Below are positions 18,741 through 32,292 of a stretch of DNA of 64,000 nucleotides, in pieces. This DNA is from Nannocystis sp. RBIL2 (GTDB lineage Bacteria > Myxococcota_A > Polyangia > Nannocystales > Nannocystaceae). The stretch is taken from NCBI RefSeq assembly GCF_026626745.1, contig NZ_JAPNJW010000002.1, positions 1,126,151 to 1,190,150 on the forward strand, read 5' to 3'. The notes beneath the pieces are model-generated. The model ran no database searches, was not told the origin of the DNA, and saw nothing but the letters and a program-made list of their open reading frames with translations. Every line of letters begins with the position of its first letter. Positions within the stretch are counted from its first letter, which is position 1. Both the position numbers and the translations under genes were made by a program.

Positions 18741-20123
18741 CTACTCGCCGGCGGCGGTGTTATCGCCGACGTCTCCAGGCTTCGGCGCGCGGCGCGACCA
18801 CAGCCAGTAGACAGGCACACCGGACAGCACGATGGCGCAGTCGACGACGAATTCCCGCGGCTGCGACAGCGCGTAGTTGCCGAGCAGGAACACGGAGGCG
18901 GCCAGGAACAGCAGCGGCACCCACGGGTAGCCGAACGTCCGGTACGGCCGCGGCAGGTCGGGGCGCGTGCGCCGCAGGACGAACACTGCGGCCACGCTGA
19001 GGGCGTAGAACGGCCAGATCCCGATCACGAATTGCCCCGCCAGCTCGGCGAAGCTGCGCACCGAGACGAACACGATCCCCAGCGCGGCGCCGAGGACGAT
19101 GCTGGCCGAGGGGGTGCCGTGGCGCGGGTGGACCTCGGCCAGGCGGCGGAAGAACAGCCGGTCCTCCGCCATGGCGTAGAACACCCGCGGCCCGGTCATC
19201 ATCGAGCCGTTGAGAGTGCCGAAGGTGCTGACCATGACGGCCGCGGCCACGAGAGTGGTGCCGAGCGAGCCGATCAGGGCGGCGGCGACATCGGCGGCGA
19301 CCAGCGGGGCGCCAGCCATCTGCTCCAGCGGGATGACCCGCAGGTACACGAGGTTGGCCGCGAGGTAGAGCGCGACGACCGCAGCGGTCCCGAGGATGAA
19401 CACCCGCGGGAGCGCGCGCTGCGGATCGCGGACCTCGCCGCTCACGAAGCCGACGTCGCACCAGCCGTCGTAGGCCCAGAGGATGGCGACCATCGCCAGG
19501 ACGAACGCCCCGTCGGCCGCCGGCGCAGCGGTCGCAGGCACCGGCGCCGTCGCCTCCGGGGCCAGCAGGAGGCCGAGCGCGACCAGGCCGAGCAGCGCCG
19601 CGACCTTCAGCGCGGTGCTGACGTTCTGCACGAGCGCCCCGAACTCGACGCCGCGGCGGTTGACCGCGGCGACCGTGGCGATCATCGCCACCGCCACCAC
19701 CTGGGCCCGCGACAGCGGTCCGAGCACCGGCGGCGCTCCGTCGACGCCGAACGTGCGCAGCAGGTACTCGGCCGAGGTCACCGCGATCGCGCCGTACGCA
19801 GCCGGGCGCAGGATGAGCAGCTCGGCCCAGCCGAACAGGAAGGCCGGCAGCTTGCCGAACGCCTCGCGCAGGTAGACGTAGATGCCGCCGCTACGCGGAT
19901 AGAGGATGGCCAGCTCGGCGACGGTCAGTGCGCCGGCGAGGGCGACCACGCCGCCGGCGACCCACGCGAGGACGAACAGGGTCAGGTCGTCGATGTGGCC
20001 GGCGATCTCCGCCGGGGTCCGGAAGATGCCGCTGCCGATCGTCGACCCGACCAGCACCGCGACGGTGCTGGCGAGGCCGAGCTTGCGAGGCAGCCGCTCG
20101 CCCCAGGGGTCAGGGGCCTGCAT
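18741..20123 (-). CDS. APC-family amino acid permease
   Basis: About 12 TM segments. N-terminal signature GLASTVAVLVGSTIGSGIFRTPAEIAG. ATG at 20123. Confidence 0.8.
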   Translation of the reverse strand: MQAPDPWGERLPRKLGLASTVAVLVGSTIGSGIFRTPAEIAGHIDDLTLFVLAWVAGGVVALAGALTVAELAILYPRSGGIYVYLREAFGKLPAFLFGWAELLILRPAAYGAIAVTSAEYLLRTFGVDGAPPVLGPLSRAQVVAVAMIATVAAVNRRGVEFGALVQNVSTALKVAALLGLVALGLLLAPEATAPVPATAAPAADGAFVLAMVAILWAYDGWCDVGFVSGEVRDPQRALPRVFILGTAAVVALYLAANLVYLRVIPLEQMAGAPLVAADVAAALIGSLGTTLVAAAVMVSTFGTLNGSMMTGPRVFYAMAEDRLFFRRLAEVHPRHGTPSASIVLGAALGIVFVSVRSFAELAGQFVIGIWPFYALSVAAVFVLRRTRPDLPRPYRTFGYPWVPLLFLAASVFLLGNYALSQPREFVVDCAIVLSGVPVYWLWSRRAPKPGDVGDNTAAGE

Positions 20124-20800
20124 GGGCGACTGATAGCGCAGTTCGCAGCGGCGCAGAAGTTCCTCGCGGGGGCCTCTGCGGGCGTGCAGGCGCGTTCGCG
20201 GATTAGCTGGCTCTCGGGTCATGTCGCGGGACGAGCCGGGCTCGCGGCGAGCATCTGCCGCCCTGGCTCTTGGCCTCGCTGTGATGAAGCGCCGGAGTCG
20301 GGTGGCATGGCCTGGGGTCGAGCGCGTTCGCGCGGCGCGTGAAAGTGTCTATTCGGACATGTCTCCGGCACCGTGACGCTGGGCCACCTCACGCGCGCCG
20401 ACCGCCGATTAGAGAACGAGGCTATCTATATTAGGAGGCAGCACCTGTTCGCCTCGGTTCGAACTCCGTCGCCCCGGACCTCGATACCCGCGCGTTCAGC
20501 ACCGCCTCGATGGCCGCGCGTCCACCACTCGTGTTCGCCCGCGGGTGATGGCTCGCGCGACGACCGCCGAGTGAGACAGCTCGGAGAAAGGCGCGACTGC
20601 TCCCTCTCGCCAGCCGCCAACGACGACGGCGACATCGGCCACATCGACGATGACGAACAGGCCGCCGGCATCTCGCACGGCGCGTCACGACGCCCGCTCC
20701 GTCGCCCTGCCCTCGCCCATCGCACGCCACTCGTGTTCGTCGGCACCCAGCGAGAAAGCGCCGAAGGCCCGGCGTGCGCCGGGCCTCCTGGACTTCGAGA

Positions 20801-20829: not shown

Positions 20830-22935
20830 TCAACCCGGCTCGAGGACGAACGGGTACGAGACGATGACCGAGCCGCCGCCCTCCGGCTTGGGGAAGGTCC
20901 AGCGCTTGACCGCCTGGGCGATGCAGGAGCCGACCGCCGGGTCCTTCATCGTGCTCTCCTGGACCACCGCGGTGGGCACCTTGCCGGTGCCGCCGATGGT
21001 GAACTGGACGGCGACGCGGCCCTTGGCGTTGGGGTCGCGGGCGAGGGCCTGGTTGTAGCAGTAGCGGACCTCGTTGATGTGCGCGCGGACGATGCGGCGG
21101 ATGATGTCCTTGTCGAGCGCGCCCTGGACCTCGGCCTTGGCCTGACGGACCGTCGGGACGCGGGTGCCGCGGCCGCCGAAGCCGGCGCCAGCGCCACGGC
21201 CGTAGCCGGAGCCCGTGCCGCCGCCGCCGCCCTTGCCGATGAGGCCCGTGTTGCCGAGGCCGATCGTGCCCTCGCCGGTGCCACCGCCGCCGCGGCCGGT
21301 GCCGACCAGGCCGAGGCCGCCGACGCCGTACGCCTCGCCGACCTCCGTGCCGGTGAGGCCGCCCCACACGTCCGCGTCGTCGTTGCCGACCGCGAACGCG
21401 CCGCCGTACGGCGAGGCGAGGAAGTGGCCGCTCTCGGCGCTCATCACCCCGAGGATGCCGGCCTGGCGCGCGGCCATGTCGGGGTCGAAGTTACGGGCCA
21501 TCTGCGGGATGGCGTCCTTGGGGCCCTTCATGGCGTAGAGGCCCGACTTGCTCTTCGAGGTGGGCTTGCCCATCTTGCCCTCCTCGCCCTTGTGGCGCTG
21601 ACCGGTGCCGCCGGCCTCGTCGTCGGAGTTCTCCATGTCCTCCGGCGGCGGCTCCTCCTCCTCCGGCGGCTTGTCGGGCTGGTTGAGGTAACCGACGAAG
21701 CGGTTCTCTTCCATCATCTCGTCGAGGCTGAGGTTGCCGGCCTCGTTGGGGATCAGGTGCGTGAGCACCAGCAAGCTGCCGATGACCACGAACGACGCGC
21801 CGTTGTAGATCCAGAACGGCTTGTCGGTCTCGCTGCCGCCCTTGATCACCGCGCCCGGCGCGACCGAGTTCACGTAGAAGGTGACGTCCTGGTACTTGAC
21901 CCGCGCCGTCGCTCCGGGCGGCAGCGGGAAGCTGAACGACGAGCCCTGCGAGCCCGCGCGGCCGGTCGCTACCAGCTGCTGCAGCGTGATCGTCTGGCCG
22001 TCGAAGGTGACCTCGCCGCTCATGTTCTGCGTGAAGTTGAGCGCGAACTCGTGGTCGCTGCCGCGGACCAGCGGGAAGCCGTTGGGCTCGGGCAGGCCGG
22101 CGGGCGGCACGTGGAACGACGCGCCGTGGCCCTCGCCGATCGTGAAGTTCTTGTTGACGTAGTCGCCGGTGCGGATGAGGCCCATGCTGAACGGCACGAG
22201 GCCCGCGATCGCCAGCAGCATGCCGATCGCCGCCAGGCCGTTTCCGGGCGGGGTCGGGCGCGGCGTGCCCTGCTCGATCGAGTCCTGGACCTTCTTGCCG
22301 TAGCCGGCCCAGTCCTGGTTCACGTCGCTGAAGAACACGCCCACGCCGGCGACCAGCATCACGCCGCCGATGGCGAGGAAAATGGGCGCCTGCGACTTGC
22401 GGTTCTTCAGCTGGCCGACGTGCTGCACGTCGAGCACCGTCGAGCCGTACATCGCCACGACCTCGGCCACCCGCGAGCCGCTCTGAACCTCGACCTCGCT
22501 GAGGTCGATCTGGATCGGGGCCCGCGTCGCCATCGGCGCCGCAGCGAGCGGAGCCGCCGCGACCGCGGCCGCCGCCACGGCCACCGGCGCGGCCACCTGC
22601 GCCGGCGCCGGCGCAGCCGCGACCTGCTGCTTGGCGAAGCCGACCTCGAGGCGGTACGGCCCGAAGTTCAAGGCGTCACCGTCGTGCAGCACCGCGTTCT
22701 TGTCGATCCGCTGGCCGTTGAGCACGGTGCCCGCCGCGCTCCCGAGATCGATCACCCGCACCTCTTCGCCGGACACCTCGATCACGGCGTGCATGCGGGC
22801 CACGGCCTCGTCATCCAGACAGATGTGGCTACTCTTCAGTTTTCCGATCTTGATAACGTCTTGCGTCAGCGTCTGCGTATCGACGAGCTGATCGCCGTAA
22901 AACACTTTGATGGCGAGCGTCTTGGTCGTTGTCAT
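20830..22935 (-). CDS. FHA-domain membrane protein with Gly-rich region and AgmX/PglI-type TonB_C-like C-terminal domain (PglI-like)
   Basis: N-terminal FHA domain (KIGKLKSSHICLDDEAVARMHAVIEVSGEEVRVIDLGSAAGTVLNGQRI), a TM segment, an acidic Pro-rich linker, and a (GxGxG)n stretch. The C-terminus (IIRRIVRAHINEVRYCYNQALARDPNAKGRVAVQFTIGGTGKV…) resembles the AgmX/PglI/TonB_C fold. Confidence 0.75.
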   Translation of the reverse strand: MTTTKTLAIKVFYGDQLVDTQTLTQDVIKIGKLKSSHICLDDEAVARMHAVIEVSGEEVRVIDLGSAAGTVLNGQRIDKNAVLHDGDALNFGPYRLEVGFAKQQVAAAPAPAQVAAPVAVAAAAVAAAPLAAAPMATRAPIQIDLSEVEVQSGSRVAEVVAMYGSTVLDVQHVGQLKNRKSQAPIFLAIGGVMLVAGVGVFFSDVNQDWAGYGKKVQDSIEQGTPRPTPPGNGLAAIGMLLAIAGLVPFSMGLIRTGDYVNKNFTIGEGHGASFHVPPAGLPEPNGFPLVRGSDHEFALNFTQNMSGEVTFDGQTITLQQLVATGRAGSQGSSFSFPLPPGATARVKYQDVTFYVNSVAPGAVIKGGSETDKPFWIYNGASFVVIGSLLVLTHLIPNEAGNLSLDEMMEENRFVGYLNQPDKPPEEEEPPPEDMENSDDEAGGTGQRHKGEEGKMGKPTSKSKSGLYAMKGPKDAIPQMARNFDPDMAARQAGILGVMSAESGHFLASPYGGAFAVGNDDADVWGGLTGTEVGEAYGVGGLGLVGTGRGGGGTGEGTIGLGNTGLIGKGGGGGTGSGYGRGAGAGFGGRGTRVPTVRQAKAEVQGALDKDIIRRIVRAHINEVRYCYNQALARDPNAKGRVAVQFTIGGTGKVPTAVVQESTMKDPAVGSCIAQAVKRWTFPKPEGGGSVIVSYPFVLEPG

Positions 22936-23204: not shown

Positions 23205-23711
23205 ATGACCTCCGACCTCGCGCCCCCCTCACCTCCCGGCCCGAGCCCGATCCTCACCCTCCGGATCAGCGTCCGCGGGCTATATGACAGCTGGACGCAC
23301 TGCCAGCGGCTGGCCGATTACATCGCGCGCTTCGTCGCCTCCGATCGCTTCGATCCCGAGCAGCTGACCACGCGCCTCTCGACCTATCTCAACGAGGTGC
23401 TCGAGTACGTGTTCCGCGCCCGGCCGAGCGAGGGCGAGATCGTGGTCGAGGTCGGGCGCACGGACGAGCACGTGATCGCCGAGCTGACGATACCGACCGA
23501 CGAGGCGCTCGCGCAGCGGCTGCGCGACGACCTCGGGCGGGTCGCGCCGGCGGACGCGCGCGCGCGCTACGAGGCCGAGTTCGAGTCGATGATCCTGCGT
23601 CCGCCGGCCGAGGTCGGGCTGCTCGAATTGGTCGCGCTCCACGGCGTCGAGCTCACGCTGCGCGAGGGCGACGGCGCCGGCGTCATCGTCCTTACTGTCC
23701 CGCACGAGTGA
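23205..23711 (+). CDS. RsbW-like (GHKL/HATPase_c-fold) putative anti-sigma/serine-kinase homolog, paralog 1
   Basis: Alignable to the 27302..27865 protein. The motifs are degenerate (…YLNEVLEYVFRA…GEIVVEVGRTDEHVIAELTIPTD…). It is the first gene of the operon. Confidence 0.45.
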   Translation: MTSDLAPPSPPGPSPILTLRISVRGLYDSWTHCQRLADYIARFVASDRFDPEQLTTRLSTYLNEVLEYVFRARPSEGEIVVEVGRTDEHVIAELTIPTDEALAQRLRDDLGRVAPADARARYEAEFESMILRPPAEVGLLELVALHGVELTLREGDGAGVIVLTVPHE

Positions 23712-23723
23712 GCCGAGCTGGGT

Positions 23724-24896
23724 ATGGAGAACGAGCAACCGTTTTCGATCCGCTTCAGCGAGAACGACCAGGAGGTCGCGCTCGAGGGGACGCTGCGGCC
23801 CGCCGGCCCCGAGGCGTTCGCGCCGGTGCGGGCGCGCCTCGACCACGCCGCCGACGCCGTGCGCGGCGTCCTCTACCTCAACTTCAAGCGCCTGCGTTAC
23901 CTCAACCACACCGGCTTCCTCGAGCTCGCGCGCTTCATCGCCGCCTGCGCCGAGCGCCACCCGAGCCTCAAGCTCAAGCTCGTCGTCTCGAGCGTCGTCC
24001 CGTGGGCGCCGCTGCGCTTCGGCTTCCTCGGCGCGCAGTTCGGCAACACCATCGTCGAGCAGTACGACAAGGCGTTTTACCCCGGCCAGGGCGTCATCGA
24101 GAACGACCAGCTCGTGCCGGTCCTGCGCACCCAGACCAACATCGTGTGGTCGCACGAGCGCGAGCTGCTGCGCCGCCACGGCCTCGGCAAGCGCATGCGG
24201 ATCGCCGACATCTGCTGCGGGATCGGCGACTTCGCGGTGCTCGTCTACAAGGAGTTCGAGCCCGCGTACATCGTCGGCGTCGACCACTCGCGGCCCTTCC
24301 TTCAATACGCGCAGCAGATGGCCCGCGAGTTCGGCATCACCGACATCGAGTATCAGTTCGGCGACGCGACCCACCTGTTCTTGCCGTCGAACAGCTTCGA
24401 CTTCGTCACCTCGCGCCTGGCGCTGCAGATCTTCAACGATCCGTCGAGCATCTTGCGCGAGCTGGTGCGGATCTGTAAACCCGGCGGTCGGGTCTACCTG
24501 ACCAACGAGATGACGGTGCACAACTACGGCTACCCGCGCCACGAGTCGGTCGCGTGGACCTACCAGCACGCCGTGAAGATCGCCCAGAGCCTCGGCATGG
24601 ACATGAACTTCGGGCCCAAGATGTTCTCGCTGCTGACCGACATGGGCTTCGAGGACGTGCGCATGGAGCAGATCCCGATCACCAACAACAACACCGCGAT
24701 CGACGACTTCGCGCGGGTGATCGAGAGCTGGGAGGAGTACGTCACCGGCGAGCTGTCGACCGCCACGCAGCAGCCGCCGGAGGTGGTCGAGCGCCTGCGC
24801 ATGGGCTTCCGCGATCACGTCTACGCGATCCGCAGCCGCCGCGGCTTCGCCACCTGGCCGATCTACGTCGCCTCCGGCCGCAAACCGGAGCGCTGA
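23724..24896 (+). CDS. STAS (anti-sigma-antagonist-like) domain fused to class I SAM-dependent methyltransferase
   Basis: The N-terminal ~110 aa has the STAS topology, with YLNHTGFLEL replacing the canonical DSSG phospho-motif. The C-terminus has the MTase motif I (DICCGIGDF), ICKPGGRVYL and a Rossmann-like fold. Confidence 0.7.
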   Translation: MENEQPFSIRFSENDQEVALEGTLRPAGPEAFAPVRARLDHAADAVRGVLYLNFKRLRYLNHTGFLELARFIAACAERHPSLKLKLVVSSVVPWAPLRFGFLGAQFGNTIVEQYDKAFYPGQGVIENDQLVPVLRTQTNIVWSHERELLRRHGLGKRMRIADICCGIGDFAVLVYKEFEPAYIVGVDHSRPFLQYAQQMAREFGITDIEYQFGDATHLFLPSNSFDFVTSRLALQIFNDPSSILRELVRICKPGGRVYLTNEMTVHNYGYPRHESVAWTYQHAVKIAQSLGMDMNFGPKMFSLLTDMGFEDVRMEQIPITNNNTAIDDFARVIESWEEYVTGELSTATQQPPEVVERLRMGFRDHVYAIRSRRGFATWPIYVASGRKPER

Positions 24897-24917: not shown

Positions 24918-27278
24918 ATGGCCACCACGGGCTCAAGGTTCCGCACCAAGTTCGTCCTCGTCGCCGGGGTCGGGCTGGTGATCGGGCTGACGCTCGCGGC
25001 GCTGGCCTCGCTGAAGGGCATCCGCGTGCTCGGCGGCGACGCGTCGGAGGAGATCCGCAAGGGCCTCGAGCGGGCCAGCCGCGAGTACCTCACCAACCAC
25101 ATCGAGGACACCGCGCAGCGCGTCGAATTCCTGCGCGGGCGGGCGCGGGCCGAGCTCGGCGTGCTCGCGGCAGTCACCCAGACGCTCATCGATCGGCAGG
25201 CCGACCTTGCGCCGCTGACCGCCGCCGCCGCTGCTGCCGGGCCGCTGCGCGACGCCCTCGTCTATGACCCGCGCGGCGACTGGTCGCAGACCGAGGCCGG
25301 TGAGCCGTCGGCGGTGGCAGTGTGGGGCTACCTGCACGCGCCGGCCGACCCGAAGCAACCTGGCCTTCGGGACATCAAGCCCGAGGTCCGCGCCGCAGTC
25401 GAGCAGACCGCCCTGCTCGACCTGCTGCTGCCCGCGCTGCTGCAGTACGGGGCCGAGAAGCAGGCCATGTACTTCATCGGCCCCGAGGGCGCCGAGTACC
25501 TGCGGATCGCCCCTTACGCCGACGCTGCGGGCCACGCCGACCAGCTCTATCCCGGCCACAACAAGAGCCCGTTCTGGAGCTTCTACTTCCCCGGCATCGT
25601 CGACGGCTGGCGGCGCTGGCTCCCCGATCCCGCGCGCATGCGCGACCCGGCGGCGCAGGTCACCGGCACCGCGCCGTACACCGACGCGGGCGGCAGCGGG
25701 GCCATCATGACCATGTTCCAGCCGCTGTGGGACGCCTCGCGCGCGCGCTTCGCCGGGGCCGTCGGCGTCGACGTCACCCTCGGTCAATTGATCCGCTACG
25801 TCCAGGACCTCGAGCTCGCCGGCTCGGGCTTCGCCTTCCTCGCCCAGGAGAACGGCAACGTGTTCGCCGTCAACGCCGACGGCCAGGAGATCCTCGGCCT
25901 GCAGCAGGCCAGCGGCTCGTCGGGTGCCGGCGTCGACATCTTCCAACAGTTCCTGCACCAGTCGCGCGACCCGGCGATCCAGGCGCTCGCGCTGCCCAGC
26001 GGCGATACCGTCGACTACCGCGACCCGGTAGCGATCGGCGGCAAGGACTACGTCGTCGTGCTCAAGCGGCTCGATCCGTTCAACGTCTGGTCGGGTTCGA
26101 CCGACATCGTGCCGGAGCGCTGGACCCTCGGCTTCGTCGTGCCTGCCGCCGAGATCTACGCCTCGCTGCACAAGGCGCAGGACACCATCGCCGCCAGCAG
26201 CCGCGGGATCCTCGTCAGCCAGATCGTCATCACTCTGGTCGCGCTCGCGGTCGTGATGTTCGGGATCCTCCTGGTCTCGCGACGCATGACCGGCGCGCTG
26301 GTCGACCTCGCCGCGGGCGCCGGCAAGATCGCGCAGAAGGACTACGACGTGCGGGTCGACGTGCGCAGCGACGACGAGTTCGGCGCGCTCGGCCGCGCCT
26401 TCAACCAGATGGCCGCCGAGATCCGCGCGTATACGCACGATCTCGAGCGGCTGGTCGAGCAGCGCACCGCCGAGCTGCAGCGGGCCTCCCGCGAGATCAT
26501 GGCGCTCAACGAGCGGCTCAAGCAGGAGAACCTGCGCCTCGGCGCCGAGCTCGACGTCGCCCGCCGGCTGCAGCTCATGGTGCTGCCGCAAGAGCGCGAG
26601 CTGGCCGAGCTCGAGGGCCTGGACGTCGCCGGCTACATGCGGCCCGCGGACGAGGTCGGCGGCGACTACTACGACGTCCTGCGCGCCGGCGACGGCGTCA
26701 AGATCGGCATCGGCGACGTCACTGGCCACGGCCTCGAGAGCGGCGTGCTGATGCTGATGATCCAGACGGCCGTGCGCACCCTGCAGGCCGCCGAGGAGCG
26801 CGACGCGGAGCGCTTCCTCAACATCGTCAACAAGGTCCTCTATCAGAACATCCAGCGCGTCGGCCTCGACCGCACCGCGACGCTGGTGCTCCTCGACTAC
26901 GCGCAGGGCGTGCTCCGCCTCACCGGACAGCACGAGGAGGCGGTGGTGGTCCGGCGGGGCGGCTCGATCGAGCGCATCGACACGGTCGACCTCGGCATGC
27001 CGGTGGGGCTCGAGGTCGACATCGCCGCGTTCATCGCCCGCACCGAGCTGCGCCTGTCGCCGGGCGATGTCGTCGTCCTGTACACTGACGGCATAACCGA
27101 GGCGGAGGACATCCACGGCGAGCTGTACGGCATCGACCGCCTGTGCGAGGTGGTGCGCCGGGTCCACGAGCGGCCGGCGGCGGAGATCAAGCAGGCGATC
27201 GTCGACGACGTCATGCGCTTCATCGGCGCGCAGAAGGTCTTCGACGACATCACGACGGTGGTGATCAAGCGGCGCTGA
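24918..27278 (+). CDS. membrane sensor PP2C (SpoIIE/RsbU-type) Ser/Thr phosphatase with periplasmic sensor domain and HAMP
   Basis: TM1 near residues 12-32, a ~400-aa periplasmic domain, TM2 (ILVSQIVITLVALAVVMFGILLV), a HAMP domain (…DEFGALGRAFNQMAAEI), a coiled coil, and a PPM domain (GGDYYDV…GDVTGHGLESG…YTDGITEA). Confidence 0.85.
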   Translation: MATTGSRFRTKFVLVAGVGLVIGLTLAALASLKGIRVLGGDASEEIRKGLERASREYLTNHIEDTAQRVEFLRGRARAELGVLAAVTQTLIDRQADLAPLTAAAAAAGPLRDALVYDPRGDWSQTEAGEPSAVAVWGYLHAPADPKQPGLRDIKPEVRAAVEQTALLDLLLPALLQYGAEKQAMYFIGPEGAEYLRIAPYADAAGHADQLYPGHNKSPFWSFYFPGIVDGWRRWLPDPARMRDPAAQVTGTAPYTDAGGSGAIMTMFQPLWDASRARFAGAVGVDVTLGQLIRYVQDLELAGSGFAFLAQENGNVFAVNADGQEILGLQQASGSSGAGVDIFQQFLHQSRDPAIQALALPSGDTVDYRDPVAIGGKDYVVVLKRLDPFNVWSGSTDIVPERWTLGFVVPAAEIYASLHKAQDTIAASSRGILVSQIVITLVALAVVMFGILLVSRRMTGALVDLAAGAGKIAQKDYDVRVDVRSDDEFGALGRAFNQMAAEIRAYTHDLERLVEQRTAELQRASREIMALNERLKQENLRLGAELDVARRLQLMVLPQERELAELEGLDVAGYMRPADEVGGDYYDVLRAGDGVKIGIGDVTGHGLESGVLMLMIQTAVRTLQAAEERDAERFLNIVNKVLYQNIQRVGLDRTATLVLLDYAQGVLRLTGQHEEAVVVRRGGSIERIDTVDLGMPVGLEVDIAAFIARTELRLSPGDVVVLYTDGITEAEDIHGELYGIDRLCEVVRRVHERPAAEIKQAIVDDVMRFIGAQKVFDDITTVVIKRR

Positions 27279-27301: not shown

Positions 27302-27865
27302 ATGGACGGCATCATCGGCGAGTACAAAGAGCCCACCGACGCTGGACCGCGCGTCATGCTGACGTTTTACCCCGGGGCGTTCCCGGTCAAGTGGAACCAG
27401 TGCAGCGTGGCGGCCGACTTCTTCGCCGAGTACTTCGCCGACGTCGGCGAGGGCGGGCTCACCGAGGAGGCCGAGCGGCGCGACTTCGTCGGCAGCGTCG
27501 GCTACGTGCTCAACGAGCTGATCGAGAACGCGGTCAAGTTCTGCGCCGGCGGCACCGTCGTCATCGACGCGGGCGTCGAGGCGGGCGAGTTCGTGGTCGT
27601 CGTCAGCAACCAGGTCTGCGGCGACGCGGTCGACGGCCTGCGTATCAAGTTCGCCGAGCTGCTCGACGGCGATCCCGCCGAGCTCCTGATGCAGCGGGTC
27701 GAGGAGAACGCCGCCAACCCCGAACTCACGACCTCGGGCCTGGGCTTTCTCACCATGCTGTCGGACTACAAGGCCCGGCTCGGCTGGCGCTTCGACCCCG
27801 CCCCTGGCAATCCTGACAACGCGCTCCTCAAGACCGCCGCCCGGCTACAGGTGAAATCGTCATGA
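27302..27865 (+). CDS. RsbW-like GHKL-fold serine kinase/anti-sigma-like protein, paralog 2
   Basis: N-box (VLNELIENAVKF), a G1-like motif (NQVCGDAVDG) and a G2-like motif (TSGLGFL). The stop overlaps the start of the next gene by 4 nt. Confidence 0.6.
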   Translation: MDGIIGEYKEPTDAGPRVMLTFYPGAFPVKWNQCSVAADFFAEYFADVGEGGLTEEAERRDFVGSVGYVLNELIENAVKFCAGGTVVIDAGVEAGEFVVVVSNQVCGDAVDGLRIKFAELLDGDPAELLMQRVEENAANPELTTSGLGFLTMLSDYKARLGWRFDPAPGNPDNALLKTAARLQVKSS

Positions 27866-28236
27866 CGGACACAACTACGCGACCCTCCGGGTCGGACACC
27901 GACATCAAAGGCCCCGGCTATCGCGTGTGGTTCGACGCGCCCGCGCGCACGGTCCACTTCGAGGGCGTGCTCCGCCTCAGCACCAGCGAGTACAAGCCGA
28001 TCGAGGACCTGCTCGACCGCGTCCTGCTGGCCAACCCCGCGCTCGCCCTGCGCATGACCGAGCTGCAGTTCCTCAACAGCTCGGGCATCAACATGCTCTA
28101 CAAGTTCGCCATCGCCGCGCGCAAGAAGGGCGAGACCGAGATCAAGGTCCACGGCTCGTCGACCATCCCGTGGCAGGGCAAGTCGCTGCCCAACCTCAAG
28201 AAGTTCCTGCCGACGATCGTCATCGCCCTCGACTGA
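27862..28236 (+). CDS. STAS-domain anti-sigma-factor-antagonist-like protein
   Basis: FLNSSGINMLYKF matches the STAS phospho-serine motif F-x-D/N-S-S-G. It is ~124 aa and homologous to the N-terminus of the 23724 protein. Confidence 0.7.
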   Translation: MTDTTTRPSGSDTDIKGPGYRVWFDAPARTVHFEGVLRLSTSEYKPIEDLLDRVLLANPALALRMTELQFLNSSGINMLYKFAIAARKKGETEIKVHGSSTIPWQGKSLPNLKKFLPTIVIALD

Positions 28237-28249
28237 GCCGGCCGCCCGC

Positions 28250-29476
28250 ATGCTCACGGATGACCCGCGCTGGCGGCGAGCCCTCGCCGACCCCGACGCC
28301 GCGGCCGAGCTCCTGGCCGACCCGGCCGCGCGCGCCGAGTTCATGGCCGCCGTCGCCACCCTGCAGGCCGAGCACGACGACCTCGTGCTGCTGCACGACT
28401 CGACGCTCGAGCACGCCAACGAGATCGAGGAGCAGCTGGCAGTCAAGATCGAGCAAGTCGAGGCGCTGGTGGTCGAGCTCGAGCTGCGCAACACCTTCAT
28501 CCGCCAGGTGTTCGGCCGCCACGTCACCGACGAGGTCGTCAATACGTTGCTCGCCTCGCCGGAGGGCCGCCAGCTCGGCGGCGAGCGGCGCACCCTGACG
28601 ATCCTGATCTCCGACCTGCGCGGCTTCTCGACCCTCTGCGAGGGCCTGGGCCCCGAGCAGGTGGTGGCGATCCTCAACATCTACCTCGGCGCCATGGCCG
28701 ACGTGATCGGCGAGTACCGCGGCTCGATCAACGAGTTCATCGGCGACGCCATCCTCGCGGTGTTCGGCGCCCCGGTGCCGCAGGAGGACCACCCCGAGCG
28801 CGCGGTCGCCTGTGCGATCGCCATGCAGCGGGCGATGGGCCGCGTCAACGCCGCGCTGGCCGAGCACGGCCTGCCCGCGCTCGAGATGGGCATCGGCGTC
28901 CACACCGGCGAGGTCGTGGTCGGCAACATCGGCTCGAACCGCCGCGCCAAGTACGGCGTGGTCGGCCGCCACGTCAACCTGACGTCGCGCATCGAGAGCT
29001 ACACCGTCGGCGGCCAGGTCCTGATCTCCGAGTCGGCCGCGCGGGCCCTCGGCGACCGCCTCCGCACCCGCGGCTGCTTCGAGGTCCGGCCCAAGGGCGT
29101 GCGCGAGCCGATCACGATCCACGACGTCACCGGCGTCGACGGCCCGTTCGCCATCCACATGATCGAAGAGGCCGCCGCGTGGCGGGTCCTGGCCGAGCCG
29201 CAGCCGCTCGTGTTCACCGCGCTCGAGGGCAAGGACACCGGCGGCCAGGAGTTCCCGGCGCTGCTCGTGGCCCACGACGAGCGCCACAACGCCGAGCTGC
29301 GGGTCGCCGCCCCGCTGCCGCTGCGCGCCGACCTCAAGCTCGTGCTCGCCGCCCTGCCCGGCGTCGACGCCTACGCCAAGGTCGTCGCCGCCGGCCCGGG
29401 CCGCGCGGTGGTCCGCTTCACCGCCCTGCCCCGCGCGCTGCAAGAGCTGCTCGACTCCCTGCCCGCGCGCGAGTGA
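28250..29476 (+). CDS. class III adenylyl/guanylyl cyclase (CHD) with N-terminal coiled coil and C-terminal unknown domain
   Basis: Cyclase motifs RTLTILISDLRGFSTL, FIGDAILAVFGAP, GIGVHTGEVVVGNIGS and KYGVVGRHVNLTSRIES. Confidence 0.85.
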   Translation: MLTDDPRWRRALADPDAAAELLADPAARAEFMAAVATLQAEHDDLVLLHDSTLEHANEIEEQLAVKIEQVEALVVELELRNTFIRQVFGRHVTDEVVNTLLASPEGRQLGGERRTLTILISDLRGFSTLCEGLGPEQVVAILNIYLGAMADVIGEYRGSINEFIGDAILAVFGAPVPQEDHPERAVACAIAMQRAMGRVNAALAEHGLPALEMGIGVHTGEVVVGNIGSNRRAKYGVVGRHVNLTSRIESYTVGGQVLISESAARALGDRLRTRGCFEVRPKGVREPITIHDVTGVDGPFAIHMIEEAAAWRVLAEPQPLVFTALEGKDTGGQEFPALLVAHDERHNAELRVAAPLPLRADLKLVLAALPGVDAYAKVVAAGPGRAVVRFTALPRALQELLDSLPARE

Positions 29477-29573: not shown

Positions 29574-31085
29574 TCAGTCGCGGCGGGCCAGCAGCGTCGC
29601 GTGCATGTCGCTGCCGTCGAGGCTCTCGTCGAGCGGCTCGTCGATGTCGATGATCACGCTCTCGCCGCCCGAGCTCGTCGGCGGCGGGATCGGCGGGACC
29701 GAGCGCGGCGCCACCGAGCCCGGCGGGGCCTCGACGGGGGCGCTCCGCGACCCGCGACCCTCGACGCCGGCGAAGCGGGCCGCCAGGGTGCGCACGAACG
29801 CGCCCATCCACGGCTTCATCGACGTCAGCTCCTCCTCGATCAGGTCGCTGGTGATCTTGGTGAGCGTCGCGTCCTCGACCACCAGCACGCTGGCGGTCCG
29901 GCGCGAGGCGGCGAAGATCGAAGTCTCGCCGAACACGTCGCCCGGCCCGAGCCAGCGCAGCGACACGTGGTGCCCCGCCTCAAGCTTGTAGACCTCGAGC
30001 CTGCCGGCCAGCACGATGTAGGCCGCGTCGCCGATCTCACCCTCGCGGATCACGTGGTCGCCGGCGGCGAAGCGGACCGTCTGGAAGCTGCCGCTGCCGC
30101 GCAGCAGGCGGACGATGTCGGCCTGCAGCGCCGCCACGCTCGGGTAGCGATCCTCGGGATCGCGGCGCAGCGCCCGGGTCACGATGCGCACCAGCTCGCG
30201 CGGGAACGGCACCGCGACGTGGCTGTCGGGCGGGGCGAACTTCGCCTCGCGCGCGAGGATCAGCGCGTCCATCGCCGTGCGCGCCTGGTACGGCGGCCGC
30301 CCGACCATCATCTCGTAGAGCAGCGCCCCCATCGAGAACACGTCGGCGCGCTCGTCGAGCGGATGGCTGTTGGCCTGCTCCGGCGACATGTACGACGGCG
30401 TGCCGAACACCAGCCCGTCGGTCTCCGACGGCGGCAGCGGCGGCAGGGCGTCACGGACCCACCGCGCCTCGTCCTCGGCGGAGCGCAGCGGCAGGATCTG
30501 GGCCCCGCCCCAGTCCATCAGATAGACCTGGCCGTAGGCGCCGACCATCACGTTGGCCGACTTGATGTCGCAGTGGATCACCCCGCGGCTGTGGGCGAAC
30601 GACAGCGCGTCGCACACCTTGACGAAGATCTCGAGGCGGTGGAACAGCCGCTCGTGGTCGGTCGCCGGCTCGCCGCCGATCAGCGCCTTCAAGCTCTGGC
30701 CCTCGACCAACTTCATCGTGAAGTAGAGCTGGCCCTGCTCGTCGCGCCCGAGCTCGTGGATCGGCACGATGTTGGGGTGGTCGAGCTGACCGGTCACCTG
30801 GGCCTCGCGCAAGAACCCGTGCACGAGGATCAGGTGGTCGTAGGTCTTGGCGTGCATGGTCTTGGCGGCCATCCGCCGCTGCAGCACCTCGTCGAACGCG
30901 AGCCGCACCGAGCCCATCCCGCCGCGCGCCAGCTCGTCGCCGAACGACAGCCGCGGCACCTGGTCCGGCAGCGCCGCGCGGATGAGGGCCTCGAGCCGCT
31001 CCTCATAGGAGAGCGGGGAGTCGCGGTCGAACAGCCGCTCGAGCGCGGCGCTGGGGGGCGAGCCTCCGGGGCGGCGACCTGGCAT
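29574..31085 (-). CDS. Hanks-type Ser/Thr protein kinase with C-terminal cyclic-nucleotide-binding (cNMP) domain
   Basis: Kinase subdomains (GGMGSVRLA, AAK, HCDIKSANV, DWG, SPE). The C-terminus has a CAP-type cNMP-binding domain (FAAGDHVIREGEIGDAAYIVLAGRLEV…GPGDVFGETS). The probable start is the ATG at 31085. Confidence 0.85.
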   Translation of the reverse strand: MPGRRPGGSPPSAALERLFDRDSPLSYEERLEALIRAALPDQVPRLSFGDELARGGMGSVRLAFDEVLQRRMAAKTMHAKTYDHLILVHGFLREAQVTGQLDHPNIVPIHELGRDEQGQLYFTMKLVEGQSLKALIGGEPATDHERLFHRLEIFVKVCDALSFAHSRGVIHCDIKSANVMVGAYGQVYLMDWGGAQILPLRSAEDEARWVRDALPPLPPSETDGLVFGTPSYMSPEQANSHPLDERADVFSMGALLYEMMVGRPPYQARTAMDALILAREAKFAPPDSHVAVPFPRELVRIVTRALRRDPEDRYPSVAALQADIVRLLRGSGSFQTVRFAAGDHVIREGEIGDAAYIVLAGRLEVYKLEAGHHVSLRWLGPGDVFGETSIFAASRRTASVLVVEDATLTKITSDLIEEELTSMKPWMGAFVRTLAARFAGVEGRGSRSAPVEAPPGSVAPRSVPPIPPPTSSGGESVIIDIDEPLDESLDGSDMHATLLARRD

Positions 31086-31137
31086 GCGGGGCCACGATAC
31101 AATGGCGCCTCGGCGGTGGTACACCGGGACGGCCGGC

Positions 31138-32292
31138 ATGGACCTGCGCACTGCCCTCGTCACGCTCCGCCTGCGCCACCCGTTCGGCCTGTCGCGCGGC
31201 ACCGTGAGCGAACTGCCGAGCTTGCTCGTGCGCCTTGACCCGGGCGACCCGGACGGCGCCGCAGCGGACGGCCCCGATCGCCGCGGCCTCGGCGAGGCCT
31301 CGCCCGTGCGCTACCTCGGTCAGTCGGCGATCGCCGCCGCGCCTCTGGCCACAGCGATCGCGGCCGAGCTGTCCCCCGAGATCCTCGCCGACCCGCGCGC
31401 GATCGCGGCCGCCGGCCCGCGCATGCGCGAGCTCGCCCCCGATCACTCCGCGGCCCGCTGCGCCGTCGACACCGCCCTGTGGGACGCGGCCGCGCGCGCC
31501 CGCGGCCGCTCGCTGGCCGAGCTGCTGGCCGACCCCGACGTGCTCGATCGGGCAGGTCTCGATCGCCATGTCCTTTCGGCCACCTCGGGGGCGACCGTCA
31601 CCTCTTACACGATCGCGCTCGACGAGCTCCCGGCGATGGCGGCCCGCGCGGCCGCGGCCGCGCACCTCCCGGTGCTCAAGATCAAGCTCGGCAAGGGCCG
31701 CGAATTCGACCGCAAGGCCGTGCGTGCGATCGCCGCCGCCGCCCCGAACGCCCGCCTGCGGGTCGACGCCAACGGCGGCTGGACCCCGGACGACGTGCGC
31801 GACCTGCTCCCGCTGCTGATCGACCTCGGGGTCGAGCAGCTCGAGCAGCCGCTGCCTGCGGGTCGGCCCGACCTCCTCGCGGCGCTCGCGCGCGACTGCC
31901 CCCTGCCGATCTACGCCGACGAGGACGTGCAGGGCCCGGACGACGTGGCGGCGCTGCGGGGCCGGGTCGCGGGCATCAACGTCAAGCTGATGAAGTGCGG
32001 CGGGATCTCGCCGGCCCTGGCGACGATCGCCGCAGCCCGGGAAAACGGCCTGCGGGTGCTCGTCGGCTGCATGATCGAGACCCGCGTCGGGCTCGCCGCC
32101 GGCGCCGCCCTGGCCCGCCTCGCCGACGAGGCCGACCTCGACGCCCACATGCTCACGCGGGCCGACCCGATGCCGCCGGGGAGTCAAGAGCGGCTCGCGC
32201 CCGACCTGCCGCGGCTTTGCGGCCCCGGCCTCGGCGTCCCGCCCGGGGCGTTGCCCGCGGACGGCGACCCGGGGCCCGGGCGCGTGGCATAA
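31138..32292 (+). CDS. enolase-superfamily dipeptide epimerase (L-Ala-D/L-Glu epimerase-like)
   Basis: MR/MLE-family metal ligands (KIKLG…RVDANGGW…EQP…ADE…KLMKCGG). Divergent from the kinase. Confidence 0.7.
   Translation: MDLRTALVTLRLRHPFGLSRGTVSELPSLLVRLDPGDPDGAAADGPDRRGLGEASPVRYLGQSAIAAAPLATAIAAELSPEILADPRAIAAAGPRMRELAPDHSAARCAVDTALWDAAARARGRSLAELLADPDVLDRAGLDRHVLSATSGATVTSYTIALDELPAMAARAAAAAHLPVLKIKLGKGREFDRKAVRAIAAAAPNARLRVDANGGWTPDDVRDLLPLLIDLGVEQLEQPLPAGRPDLLAALARDCPLPIYADEDVQGPDDVAALRGRVAGINVKLMKCGGISPALATIAAARENGLRVLVGCMIETRVGLAAGAALARLADEADLDAHMLTRADPMPPGSQERLAPDLPRLCGPGLGVPPGALPADGDPGPGRVA

Follow-up and report, generated by a model that had tools for sequence, protein, structure and literature searches.

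A conserved gene cassette encoding a putative partner switch and a methyltransferase fused to a STAS-like domain without a phospho-acceptor in Nannocystis sp. RBIL2 and other bacteria

We analysed a stretch of 64,000 nucleotides from Nannocystis sp. RBIL2 (contig NZ_JAPNJW010000002.1, positions 1,126,151 to 1,190,150; hereafter called the window, with a G+C content of about 71%), focusing on a gene that encodes a STAS-like domain fused to an S-adenosylmethionine (SAM)-dependent methyltransferase. This gene belongs to a tight row of six genes, designated A to F, all co-directional on the forward (+) strand. Gene A (23205-23711) encodes a 168-aa divergent paralogue of the GHKL-like slr1658 proteins and is located directly upstream of gene B (23724-24896), an uninterrupted open reading frame (ORF) encoding the 390-aa fusion, which is the subject of this study. 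These are followed by gene C (24918-27278), which encodes a 786-aa SiaA-like sensor phosphatase with a dCache-HAMP-PP2C(SpoIIE) architecture; gene D (27302-27865), which encodes a 187-aa GHKL-like protein of the slr1658 superfamily, the presumed kinase of E; and gene E (27862-28236), which encodes a 124-aa STAS-like protein of the slr1659 superfamily. The reading frames of D and E overlap by 4 bp, and the start of D was checked. Directly after E, gene F (28250-29476) encodes a 408-aa class III adenylate/guanylate cyclase (Pfam Guanylate_cyc, 5.1e-26). The locus was 99% identical at the protein level to that of Nannocystis pusilla Na p29.

The fusion protein was characterized, from the N- to the C-terminus, by a STAS-like domain of the slr1659/SiaC type (residues 1-113, nt 23724-24062; hereafter B-N), a conserved linker followed by a long helix that connects this domain to the Rossmann core (residues 114-151, nt 24063-24176), and a class I SAM-dependent methyltransferase with a C-terminal cap (residues 152-390, nt 24177-24896). 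An AlphaFold2 model of the full-length protein, built from a 108-sequence alignment, had a mean predicted local distance difference test score (pLDDT) of 92.3 and a predicted template modelling score of 0.79. The sequence strings on which the preliminary description of this locus relied were all found in place: YLNHTGFL at residues 59-66 (nt 23898-23921, with the His62 codon at 23907-23909), SAM motif I DICCGIGDF at residues 162-170 (nt 24207-24233), and FLNSSGIN at residues 70-77 of E (nt 28069-28092).

The fusion of the two domains, which had been described before, is genuine and conserved. A total of 910 protein clusters matched B, and the best 120 of these were nearly all about 385-430 aa long, with a query coverage of 97-100% except for one truncated fragment. 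In a scan of one genome per species, the gene was found as a single ORF in 452 genomes from several phyla, including Nannocystis, Sorangium, and Polyangium, as well as Rhizobium, Sinorhizobium, Mesorhizobium, Devosia, Roseibium, Inquilinus, Rhodanobacteraceae, Competibacteraceae, and Chthoniobacter. The same uninterrupted architecture throughout these species genomes means that the fusion is not the product of an assembly frameshift. In public databases, the homologues are annotated as 'quinone methyltransferase', 'UbiE' or 'methyltransferase domain-containing protein', and one was named 'MlaB component' in a JGI annotation.

The linker region has the consensus YD..FYPGQ..E....L.VLRTQT...W.HER..L..HGL, in which residues 128-151 form a helix in the AlphaFold2 model and Y114, D115, Y119, P120, Q122, E126, L134, R135, Q137, W142, E145, H152, and G153 are invariant or nearly so. 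Both this region and a C-terminal WPI.VASGRKP tail were specific to the fusion family, and the linker and helix seem well placed to relay the state of the N-terminal domain to the active-site lid.

The N-terminal ~110 residues had been reported to align with the stand-alone protein E. This homology was found at the profile level, but a pairwise BLASTP search gave no alignment between the two proteins, which shared 24% identity when aligned with MAFFT and matched each other in phmmer with an E-value of 3.5e-5 (small database). The NCBIfam model slr1659_superfam (NF047705) matched residues 5-94 of B (E = 5.1e-11; 42.9 bits, under its cut-off of 100 bits). When a profile of 14 fusion N-domains was compared with one of 16 slr1659 proteins using hhalign, the match extended over 108 columns with a probability of 98.7% (E = 2.5e-16), and N61-H62-T63-G64 of B were paired with N72-S73-S74-G75. 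Judged from these profiles, the resemblance between B-N and the slr1659 proteins is clearly far beyond chance.

The fold prediction agreed with the assignment of this region to the STAS/SpoIIAA-like fold: residues 7-114 of the AlphaFold2 model were arranged as beta-beta-alpha-beta-alpha-beta-alpha-beta, and the pLDDT was 92.5 for the domain alone. The label of a canonical STAS domain was less apt, since the domain is of the slr1659/SiaC type and is not matched by the Pfam STAS model. Neither Pfam STAS (PF01740) nor TIGR00377 matched B at E <= 0.1, and no Pfam domain was found in residues 1-110; on the stand-alone protein E, Pfam STAS scored 15.7 bits (E = 0.013) versus a cut-off of 22.6. Likewise, the SiaC model PF09345 (DUF1987) had no match on B or E at E <= 0.1. 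It weakly matched a tandem slr1659 protein, and the likeness of B-N to SiaC is, as far as the predicted model indicates, structural only. Profile searches of the PDB with slr1659, slr1658 and B-N gave only marginal matches, such as SpoIIAA (E = 0.03) and a histidine-kinase N-box (E = 0.12), and the only STAS matches of the B-N profile were very weak ones to MlaB-type chains (E ~0.4). What proved decisive was the comparison of folds. A CsoR match obtained in the same searches (E = 0.003) was discarded as spurious.

The preliminary description had read the YLNHTGFL motif of B as the counterpart of FLNSSGIN in E, and this reading was right. In SiaC and SpoIIAA, the phospho-acceptor is the residue that immediately follows a conserved Asp or Asn at the N-terminus of helix alpha2. 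T68 is the phosphorylated residue of SiaC, within the sequence LLYLN-T68-SSIK (PMC7647112). The slr1659 profile aligned LefLN-S-SG to LSFMD-S-SG of SpoIIAA, which places the acceptor at Ser73 in E (predicted) and the equivalent position at His62 in B, the first residue of a modelled helix spanning residues 62-78. The first Ser of the SpoIIAA motif DSSG is taken here to be S58 (PDB chain 1auz lacks Met1). Thr63 of B is thus located at +1 from the acceptor position, and the earlier suggestion that a retained Thr might keep the domain phospho-regulated did not hold: this Thr was present in only 19 of 79 homologues.

Indeed, across 79 fusion homologues, the acceptor column was composed of N (55), H (14), F (7), Y (1), S (1), and A (1), so that a Ser or Thr was present in only one of them, and the +1 column was composed of V (29), T (19), I (13), A (9), L (5), R (3), and M (1). 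Close Nannocystis relatives exhibited HVG, HRG, NLG, or HHA at these positions. The slr1659 proteins (n = 63) all had Ser as acceptor, and their LNSSGIN motif was invariant save for one change each at the second Ser and at the Ile. With N, H, or F in the acceptor column and a variable +1 column, the alignment indicates that the fusion family as a whole has lost the phospho-acceptor and that Thr63 is incidental in the protein from the window.

Other features of the domain were retained. Both B-N and the slr1659 family had the preceding Asn (Asn61 in B) and a SS..PW motif at the junction of beta4 and alpha3, which means that partner-facing surface features persist; this region of the STAS fold presumably faces the kinase, as we assume from the SpoIIAA-SpoIIAB complex. 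The alpha3 motif KSLpNLKK of slr1659 was exchanged for another conserved pattern in the fusion family, which is consistent with a changed binding partner.

A search for other architectures containing the acceptor-less N-domain yielded 58 matches among 1.84 billion representative proteins, and these were mostly fragments of the same family and ordinary slr1659 proteins. The search also returned tandem double-slr1659 proteins of about 230-250 aa with LNSSG in both halves (P0255, P0256, P0264, P0267, and P0276) and a slr1659 domain with an intact FLNSSG fused to a Haem_oxygenas_2-like domain (P0293). Two fragmentary, fusion-like sequences (P0282 and P0286) exhibited YINALG or YLNSAG and retained a slr1659-like 'GSKV.TWEGKSL'; from their sequences, they look like evolutionary intermediates between slr1659 and B-N. 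Together, the tandem, haem-oxygenase-like and intermediate forms indicate that the slr1659 module is used combinatorially.

The methyltransferase half, described as a Rossmann-type enzyme, proved to have intact SAM motifs. It passed the Pfam cut-offs for Methyltransf_11 (69.6 bits versus 21.2; E = 3.8e-19), Methyltransf_31 (65.1 versus 27), and Methyltransf_25 (65.3 versus 27), and shares with class I enzymes of these types the Rossmann core and the SAM motifs. D162-ICCGIG-D169, D187, D214-A215, D226, and P253-G254-G255 were all present and were invariant or near-invariant in 108 sequences, in particular G166, G168, D187, D214, A215, D226, P253, and G255. Further conserved positions in this half were H188, R231, Q235, N261-E262, W336, W378, and the C-terminal WPI.VASGRKP. 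On this conservation, the methyltransferase looks catalytically intact.

Among solved structures, Foldseek placed 3mgg first (E = 2.8e-20; template modelling score of 0.84 on the target), followed by LahSB (6uak; 1.3e-19), and LahSB was also the best sequence match in phmmer (E = 1.3e-16). Other fold neighbours were phosphoethanolamine N-methyltransferases, RebM, and TmtA/GtmA; identity to the structural neighbours was only 14-22%. Unlike B, none of these compared class I methyltransferases has a STAS domain. The neighbours were too heterogeneous for a substrate to be assigned from them. An identity as UbiE/MenG was rejected, with scores of 69.8 bits versus a cut-off of 216 (NF001244) and 66.9 versus 158 (TIGR01934) and a genomic context of signalling rather than quinone biosynthesis; arsenite, BioC and similar methyltransferase assignments were far under their curated cut-offs.

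Gene A resembled the slr1658 proteins in the same manner as B-N resembled the slr1659 proteins. The slr1658_superfam model (NF047703) matched A with an E-value of 1.1e-8 and 34.8 bits (cut-off 100), BLASTP gave only a weak match of 84 residues between A and D, and hhalign aligned the two families over 154 columns with a probability of 98.1% (E = 1e-13). The equivalent of the N-box in A is NEVLEYVFRA (nt 23391-23420). The A family keeps NELLE and has T, V, A, L, I, Y, or M at the position of the Mg-ATP-binding Asn, which was found in 0 of 78 A-family proteins versus 63 of 63 D-family proteins; at the equivalent of the SGLG lid, the A family has x-G-L-L. By curated criteria and on these sequence features, A is thus a degenerate slr1658 paralogue rather than a member of the superfamily, and it is probably a pseudokinase and a binding partner. 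The preliminary description had referred to a cognate GHKL protein; the most obvious candidate is this adjacent 168-aa protein, which it had not flagged and which itself lacks the ATP-binding residues.

The A family comprised 409 clusters of proteins of 165-193 aa with no Pfam domain, and no A::B fusion was present among the best 120 of these (P0298-P0417). Its members are widely named 'ubiquinone biosynthesis methyltransferase UbiE' in RefSeq/GenBank in spite of having no methyltransferase domain (for example, L087:5462-5980 at a Sinorhizobium meliloti locus), a name that looks like an error propagated from the neighbouring gene.

Downstream of B, protein C was matched by Pfam SpoIIE (1.6e-39), HAMP (4.4e-13), and dCache_1 (2.4e-6, under its cut-off), and by the NCBIfam SiaA model with an E-value of 1.4e-33, under the cut-off. 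Protein D passed the slr1658_superfam cut-off of 100 bits (143.6 bits; E = 4.3e-42) and contained the N-box NELIENAVKF (nt 27512-27541) and SGLG (nt 27734-27745). In the D family (n = 63), the N-box had the form NEL.ENA.KF with Asn in 63 of 63 proteins, the Ser and second Gly of SGLG were found in 63 of 63, and the first Gly in 62 of 63. HATPase_c gave a sub-threshold match on D (E = 0.0023) and nothing on A. Protein E passed the slr1659_superfam cut-off of 100 bits (125.2 bits; E = 1.3e-36), and its LNSSG, with the conserved acceptor, aligned with DSSG of SpoIIAA. Clusters of E numbered 3261, compared with the 910 of B. The components of the C-D-E half are those of a SiaABC-type switch: its PP2C is signal-controlled, the N-box of its GHKL-like protein is intact, and the acceptor of its STAS-like protein is invariant.

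To describe the gene neighbourhood of B, 80 species-level loci were sampled and all their ORFs were scored by phmmer with the window proteins. A was located directly upstream of B in 77 of 79 loci and C directly downstream in 73 of 76; D and E, both downstream of B, were each present in 76 of 76, and all five genes were found in 70 of 75. The core order was thus degenerate GHKL, STAS-methyltransferase, dCache-HAMP-PP2C, slr1658, and slr1659. The same order was seen in the called genes of Sorangium So ce56, an alphaproteobacterial metagenome-assembled genome (MAG), Chthoniobacter, and a ~1.65-Mb replicon of S. meliloti. The stop and start of A and B overlapped by 4 bp in Sorangium So ce56, the alphaproteobacterial MAG and S. 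meliloti; in Chthoniobacter, A and B were 6 bp apart and B and C overlapped by 4 bp.

In 19 loci (Sorangium, Polyangium, and Byssovorax), D and E formed one ORF. In Sorangium cellulosum So ce56 (L001:10697-11614), the one such ORF that was scanned, both halves of the ~305-aa D::E protein scored over their NCBIfam cut-offs. Following a Rosetta-stone argument, these fused ORFs point to a physical interaction between D and E and, by paralogy, between A and B-N. The D::E fusion was followed by a second PP2C of about 330 aa.

The class III cyclase adjoined the cassette in only some lineages, on either side, and F thus appears to be a lineage-variable neighbour outside the conserved five-gene core, although it is possibly a second output. 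The genes flanking the cassette were otherwise unrelated. Given these unrelated flanks and the variable cyclase, the conserved core contains a single non-regulatory enzyme, the methyltransferase.

A second small, soluble PP2C (SpoIIE with an N-terminal region of about 110-170 aa) was encoded divergently just upstream of A in many loci, among them many alphaproteobacterial, gammaproteobacterial, and verrucomicrobial ones (for example, L060:6143-7084, L047:6323-7225, L043:6458-7471, and L005:5361-6272, all on the minus strand). By analogy with RsbU and RsbP, this arrangement suggests two phosphatase inputs. No such second PP2C was found in the 64-kb window. In three loci from Nannocystis MAGs (L010, L011, and L012), a smaller PP2C was encoded about 3 kb upstream, on the opposite strand.

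The cassette was also observed on large secondary replicons of rhizobia, in 120 PLSDB records (80 from Sinorhizobium, 24 from Rhizobium, 9 from Ensifer, and 6 from Aminobacter). In S. meliloti RCAM1750 p_2 (L087; CP050512.1, 209187-222335), it lies downstream of an EAL-domain gene and its genes, with the locus tags HB773_18240-18260, are annotated, in order, as UbiE, methyltransferase, SpoIIE phosphatase, ATP-binding protein, and hypothetical protein.

We compared the cassette with known systems that use STAS proteins. The slr1658 and slr1659 proteins are already recognized as regulator superfamilies by NCBI curators (NF047703 and NF047705), and a slr1658 mutant of Synechocystis has an iron-starvation-recovery phenotype. 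D and E are bona fide members of these superfamilies, and A and B-N are divergent paralogues that differ from them in having neither ENA and SGLG (A) nor LNSSG (B-N) and in scoring below the curated cut-offs. In the literature, we found no report on a STAS::methyltransferase fusion, on the mechanism or biochemistry of slr1658/slr1659, or on the A and B-N paralogues.

The closest likeness in gene content was to SiaABCD of Pseudomonas aeruginosa, which consists of the HAMP-PP2C protein SiaA, the kinase SiaB, the DUF1987/STAS-like phosphoprotein SiaC, and the diguanylate cyclase SiaD. Both systems group the genes for a membrane HAMP-PP2C, a STAS-like protein and a small GHKL-like protein, and the output, which is a proposal in the case of the cassette, is an enzyme rather than a sigma factor; the YLN-x motif of B matches LLYLN-T68 of SiaC, and C and D gave weak matches to the SiaA and SiaB models. 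An enzymatic output of this kind has a precedent, since unphosphorylated SiaC binds and activates SiaD (PMC7278518). The present cassette differs in that a STAS-like module without an acceptor is fused to the enzyme, in that this enzyme is a SAM-dependent methyltransferase instead of a GGDEF cyclase, and in that there are two GHKL-like and two STAS-like paralogues, with one of the pairs degenerate. Moreover, none of the cassette proteins passed the cut-offs of the SiaA, SiaB, and SiaC family models.

Like the SpoIIE-SpoIIAB-SpoIIAA and RsbU/P-RsbW-RsbV switches, the cassette follows a logic in which a PP2C and a GHKL-type protein, here a presumed kinase, act on a STAS protein whose acceptor follows an Asp or Asn at the N-terminus of helix alpha2. 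Unlike these anti-sigma switches, it contains no sigma factor, the Pfam STAS and HATPase_c thresholds were not passed, and the proposed target is an enzyme with a decoy STAS domain of its own. STAS domains also serve as interaction or regulatory modules without a phospho-switch in MlaB (with the MlaF ATPase), SulP/SLC26, and YtvA/RsbR. B differs from these in that no transporter or ABC ATPase is encoded near it and in that B-N derives from the phosphorylatable slr1659 lineage, inside an operon for a phosphatase and a presumed kinase.

The preliminary description had suggested that methylation is gated by a partner switch. This is reasonable, as B lies in an operon with PP2C, GHKL-like, and STAS genes, in which C provides the PP2C phosphatase and E the acceptor-bearing STAS protein. 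We propose, with a probability of roughly 0.5, that genes A to E encode a SiaABC-like switch in which a pseudokinase/pseudosubstrate pair couples the switch to the methyltransferase. The A/B-N pair may have arisen by duplication of the kinase/substrate pair D/E (slr1658/slr1659), which is encoded three genes downstream. B-N would then be a phosphorylation-independent docking module, or 'pseudosubstrate', for a GHKL-type partner, for which A is the first candidate. Since B-N has no acceptor and A is apparently unable to bind ATP, the most economical reading is that the two would form a phosphorylation-independent complex. In Bacillus, Ser-to-Ala antagonists bind their kinases stably, and the same behaviour is proposed for B-N.

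In this mechanism, a PP2C controlled by a periplasmic signal (C) and a GHKL-like kinase (D) would set the phosphorylation of E at Ser73. Unphosphorylated E would then compete for the GHKL-type proteins (A and/or D), and this competition would alter the occupancy of the docking domain of the methyltransferase, turning methylation on or off. We infer in this scheme the binding of A to B-N, the competition by E, the direction of control, and the kinase activity of D. More tentatively, the whole switch might be seen as duplicated, with a live slr1658/slr1659 pair and a 'dead' A/B-N adaptor through which phosphorylation within the live pair would govern the methyltransferase; we regard this fuller version as possible, and would not press it.

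Several observations weigh against the proposed switch. D lacks the canonical G1 DxGxG box, with a conserved Asn in its place, and its match to SiaB_fam_kinase was weak (E = 3.7e-5) and below the cut-off. The structures nearest to the enzyme half are an uncharacterised Methanosarcina enzyme (3mgg), the C-terminal methyltransferase of a ribosomally synthesized and post-translationally modified peptide, and small-molecule methyltransferases, which point to no substrate. The three Nannocystis MAG loci mentioned above are arranged as A-B-D-E-cyclase, with no sensor PP2C between B and D. Finally, we performed a mirror-tree analysis with partial correlations for A, B-N, the methyltransferase domain of B, C, D, and E on 71 loci, with no significance test. 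All modules co-varied with phylogeny, and the partial correlations were small and left the binding partners undecided. The value was highest for the methyltransferase domain of B and C (0.65), and D and E reached 0.44. For A and B-N it was low (0.16), compared with 0.30 for B-N and D and 0.27 for both B-N and E and A and E, so that the wiring among A, B-N, D, and E is not fixed by this analysis.

Information could also flow in the opposite direction. The methyltransferase-like half might be an input that senses SAM, S-adenosylhomocysteine, or a metabolite, with or without turnover, and controls a non-phosphorylated STAS domain, which would sequester or release A or D; the true outputs would then lie elsewhere, for example in the adjacent cyclase. 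We consider this unlikely, although a STAS domain that has no acceptor and simply retains a GHKL partner is compatible with both the loss of Ser in B-N and that of the ATP site in A, cyclase or other signalling genes that could be the output often flank the cassette, and in the SiaC precedent it is the free STAS protein (compare E), not a fusion, that activates the output enzyme. Conservation in the enzyme half goes beyond SAM binding (H188, R231, Q235, N261-E262, W336, W378, and WPI.VASGRKP), as in a working enzyme. In RsbR (globin-STAS) and YtvA (LOV-STAS), the sensor precedes the STAS domain, the opposite of the order in B. Moreover, the cyclase is not a conserved neighbour, and the core of many loci contains no non-regulatory enzyme besides the methyltransferase.

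That the methyltransferase modifies a member of its own cassette seems somewhat less likely again. C would be the most attractive substrate, in the manner of CheR acting on chemoreceptors during adaptation, and the acceptor-less STAS domain, as a pseudosubstrate, would tether the enzyme to the PP2C domain, a natural recogniser of the STAS fold, or to D. The five genes do move together as one self-contained set, and no further conserved neighbour is there to supply a substrate; the best sequence match in solved structures, LahSB, is a peptide carboxyl methyltransferase; and the strongest partial correlation linked the methyltransferase domain to C. However, this correlation of 0.65 carries no significance test, and these two longest and best-conserved sequences may simply track the species tree. 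In addition, C does not separate B from D in L010-L012, and the fold neighbours are mostly small-molecule methyltransferases.

A phospho-regulated N-domain, in which the GHKL kinase and the PP2C encoded close by would act on Thr63 or His62, is very improbable. A Thr does lie beside the canonical position in the window protein and in 19 of the 79 homologues, and the nearby genes include those for a PP2C and for a GHKL-like protein whose N-box is intact. Nevertheless, Thr63 is at +1, off the acceptor position set by T68 of SiaC, S58 of SpoIIAA (as numbered here), and S73 of slr1659. Neither column is conserved, with a Ser or Thr acceptor in 1 of 79 proteins and mostly V, I, A, or L at +1, whereas purifying selection holds the Ser in 63 of 63 stand-alone paralogues of these same loci. 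The adjacent GHKL paralogue, A, also lacks the ATP-binding residues. Lastly, the 'quinone methyltransferase' and 'UbiE' names in public databases and the absence of Pfam domains from residues 1-110 might suggest that the fusion is an artefact or that the protein is an ordinary UbiE-type quinone methyltransferase whose N-terminal region was added in particular lineages and plays no part in signalling, but this is practically untenable in view of its occurrence in 452 species genomes of several phyla, the UbiE/MenG score of 69.8 bits versus 216, the confidently folded STAS-like N-domain with its slr1659 homology, and the near-absolute synteny with PP2C, slr1658, and slr1659.

Beyond the row of six genes, a divergent gene upstream (20830-22935, minus strand) encodes an FHA-domain protein of ~700 aa that also has Gly-rich and TonB-C-like regions, followed by an amino-acid permease gene (18741-20222, minus strand); neither was kept beside the cassette in other lineages. 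After F, a convergent gene (29574-31202, minus strand) encodes a Ser/Thr kinase (Pkinase, 3.6e-37) with a C-terminal cyclic-nucleotide-binding domain (cNMP_binding, 9.7e-18). It is possible that the cyclase F and this kinase form a local cAMP relay, as a SiaD-like second output of the switch. A role of the locus in anti-phage defence was considered and dropped; PADLOC matched only generic methyltransferase (mad2) and cyclase (PycC) domains.

In bacterial signalling, the partner switch of PP2C phosphatase, GHKL kinase and STAS protein is a major design, with sigma factors and, more recently, diguanylate cyclases such as SiaD known as its outputs. HsbD is another diguanylate cyclase controlled in this way. 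The system described here, a putative partner-switch cassette that combines a degenerate adaptor pair with a methyltransferase as its output, is widespread and unannotated: its N-domain is invisible to Pfam, the fusion is called a generic or 'quinone' methyltransferase, and A is misnamed UbiE, so that it is hidden in hundreds of genomes. If the proposed mechanism is true, the five genes would make up a self-contained signalling device present in at least four phyla, including the tractable S. meliloti, and the occurrence of the cassette in this species and in Sorangium opens the hypothesis directly to genetics. It would also provide a natural bacterial example of a pseudokinase/pseudosubstrate adaptor pair, and methylation would join the outputs of bacterial partner switches as a new class, with the sensor phosphatase as a possible target in a CheR-like adaptation loop.

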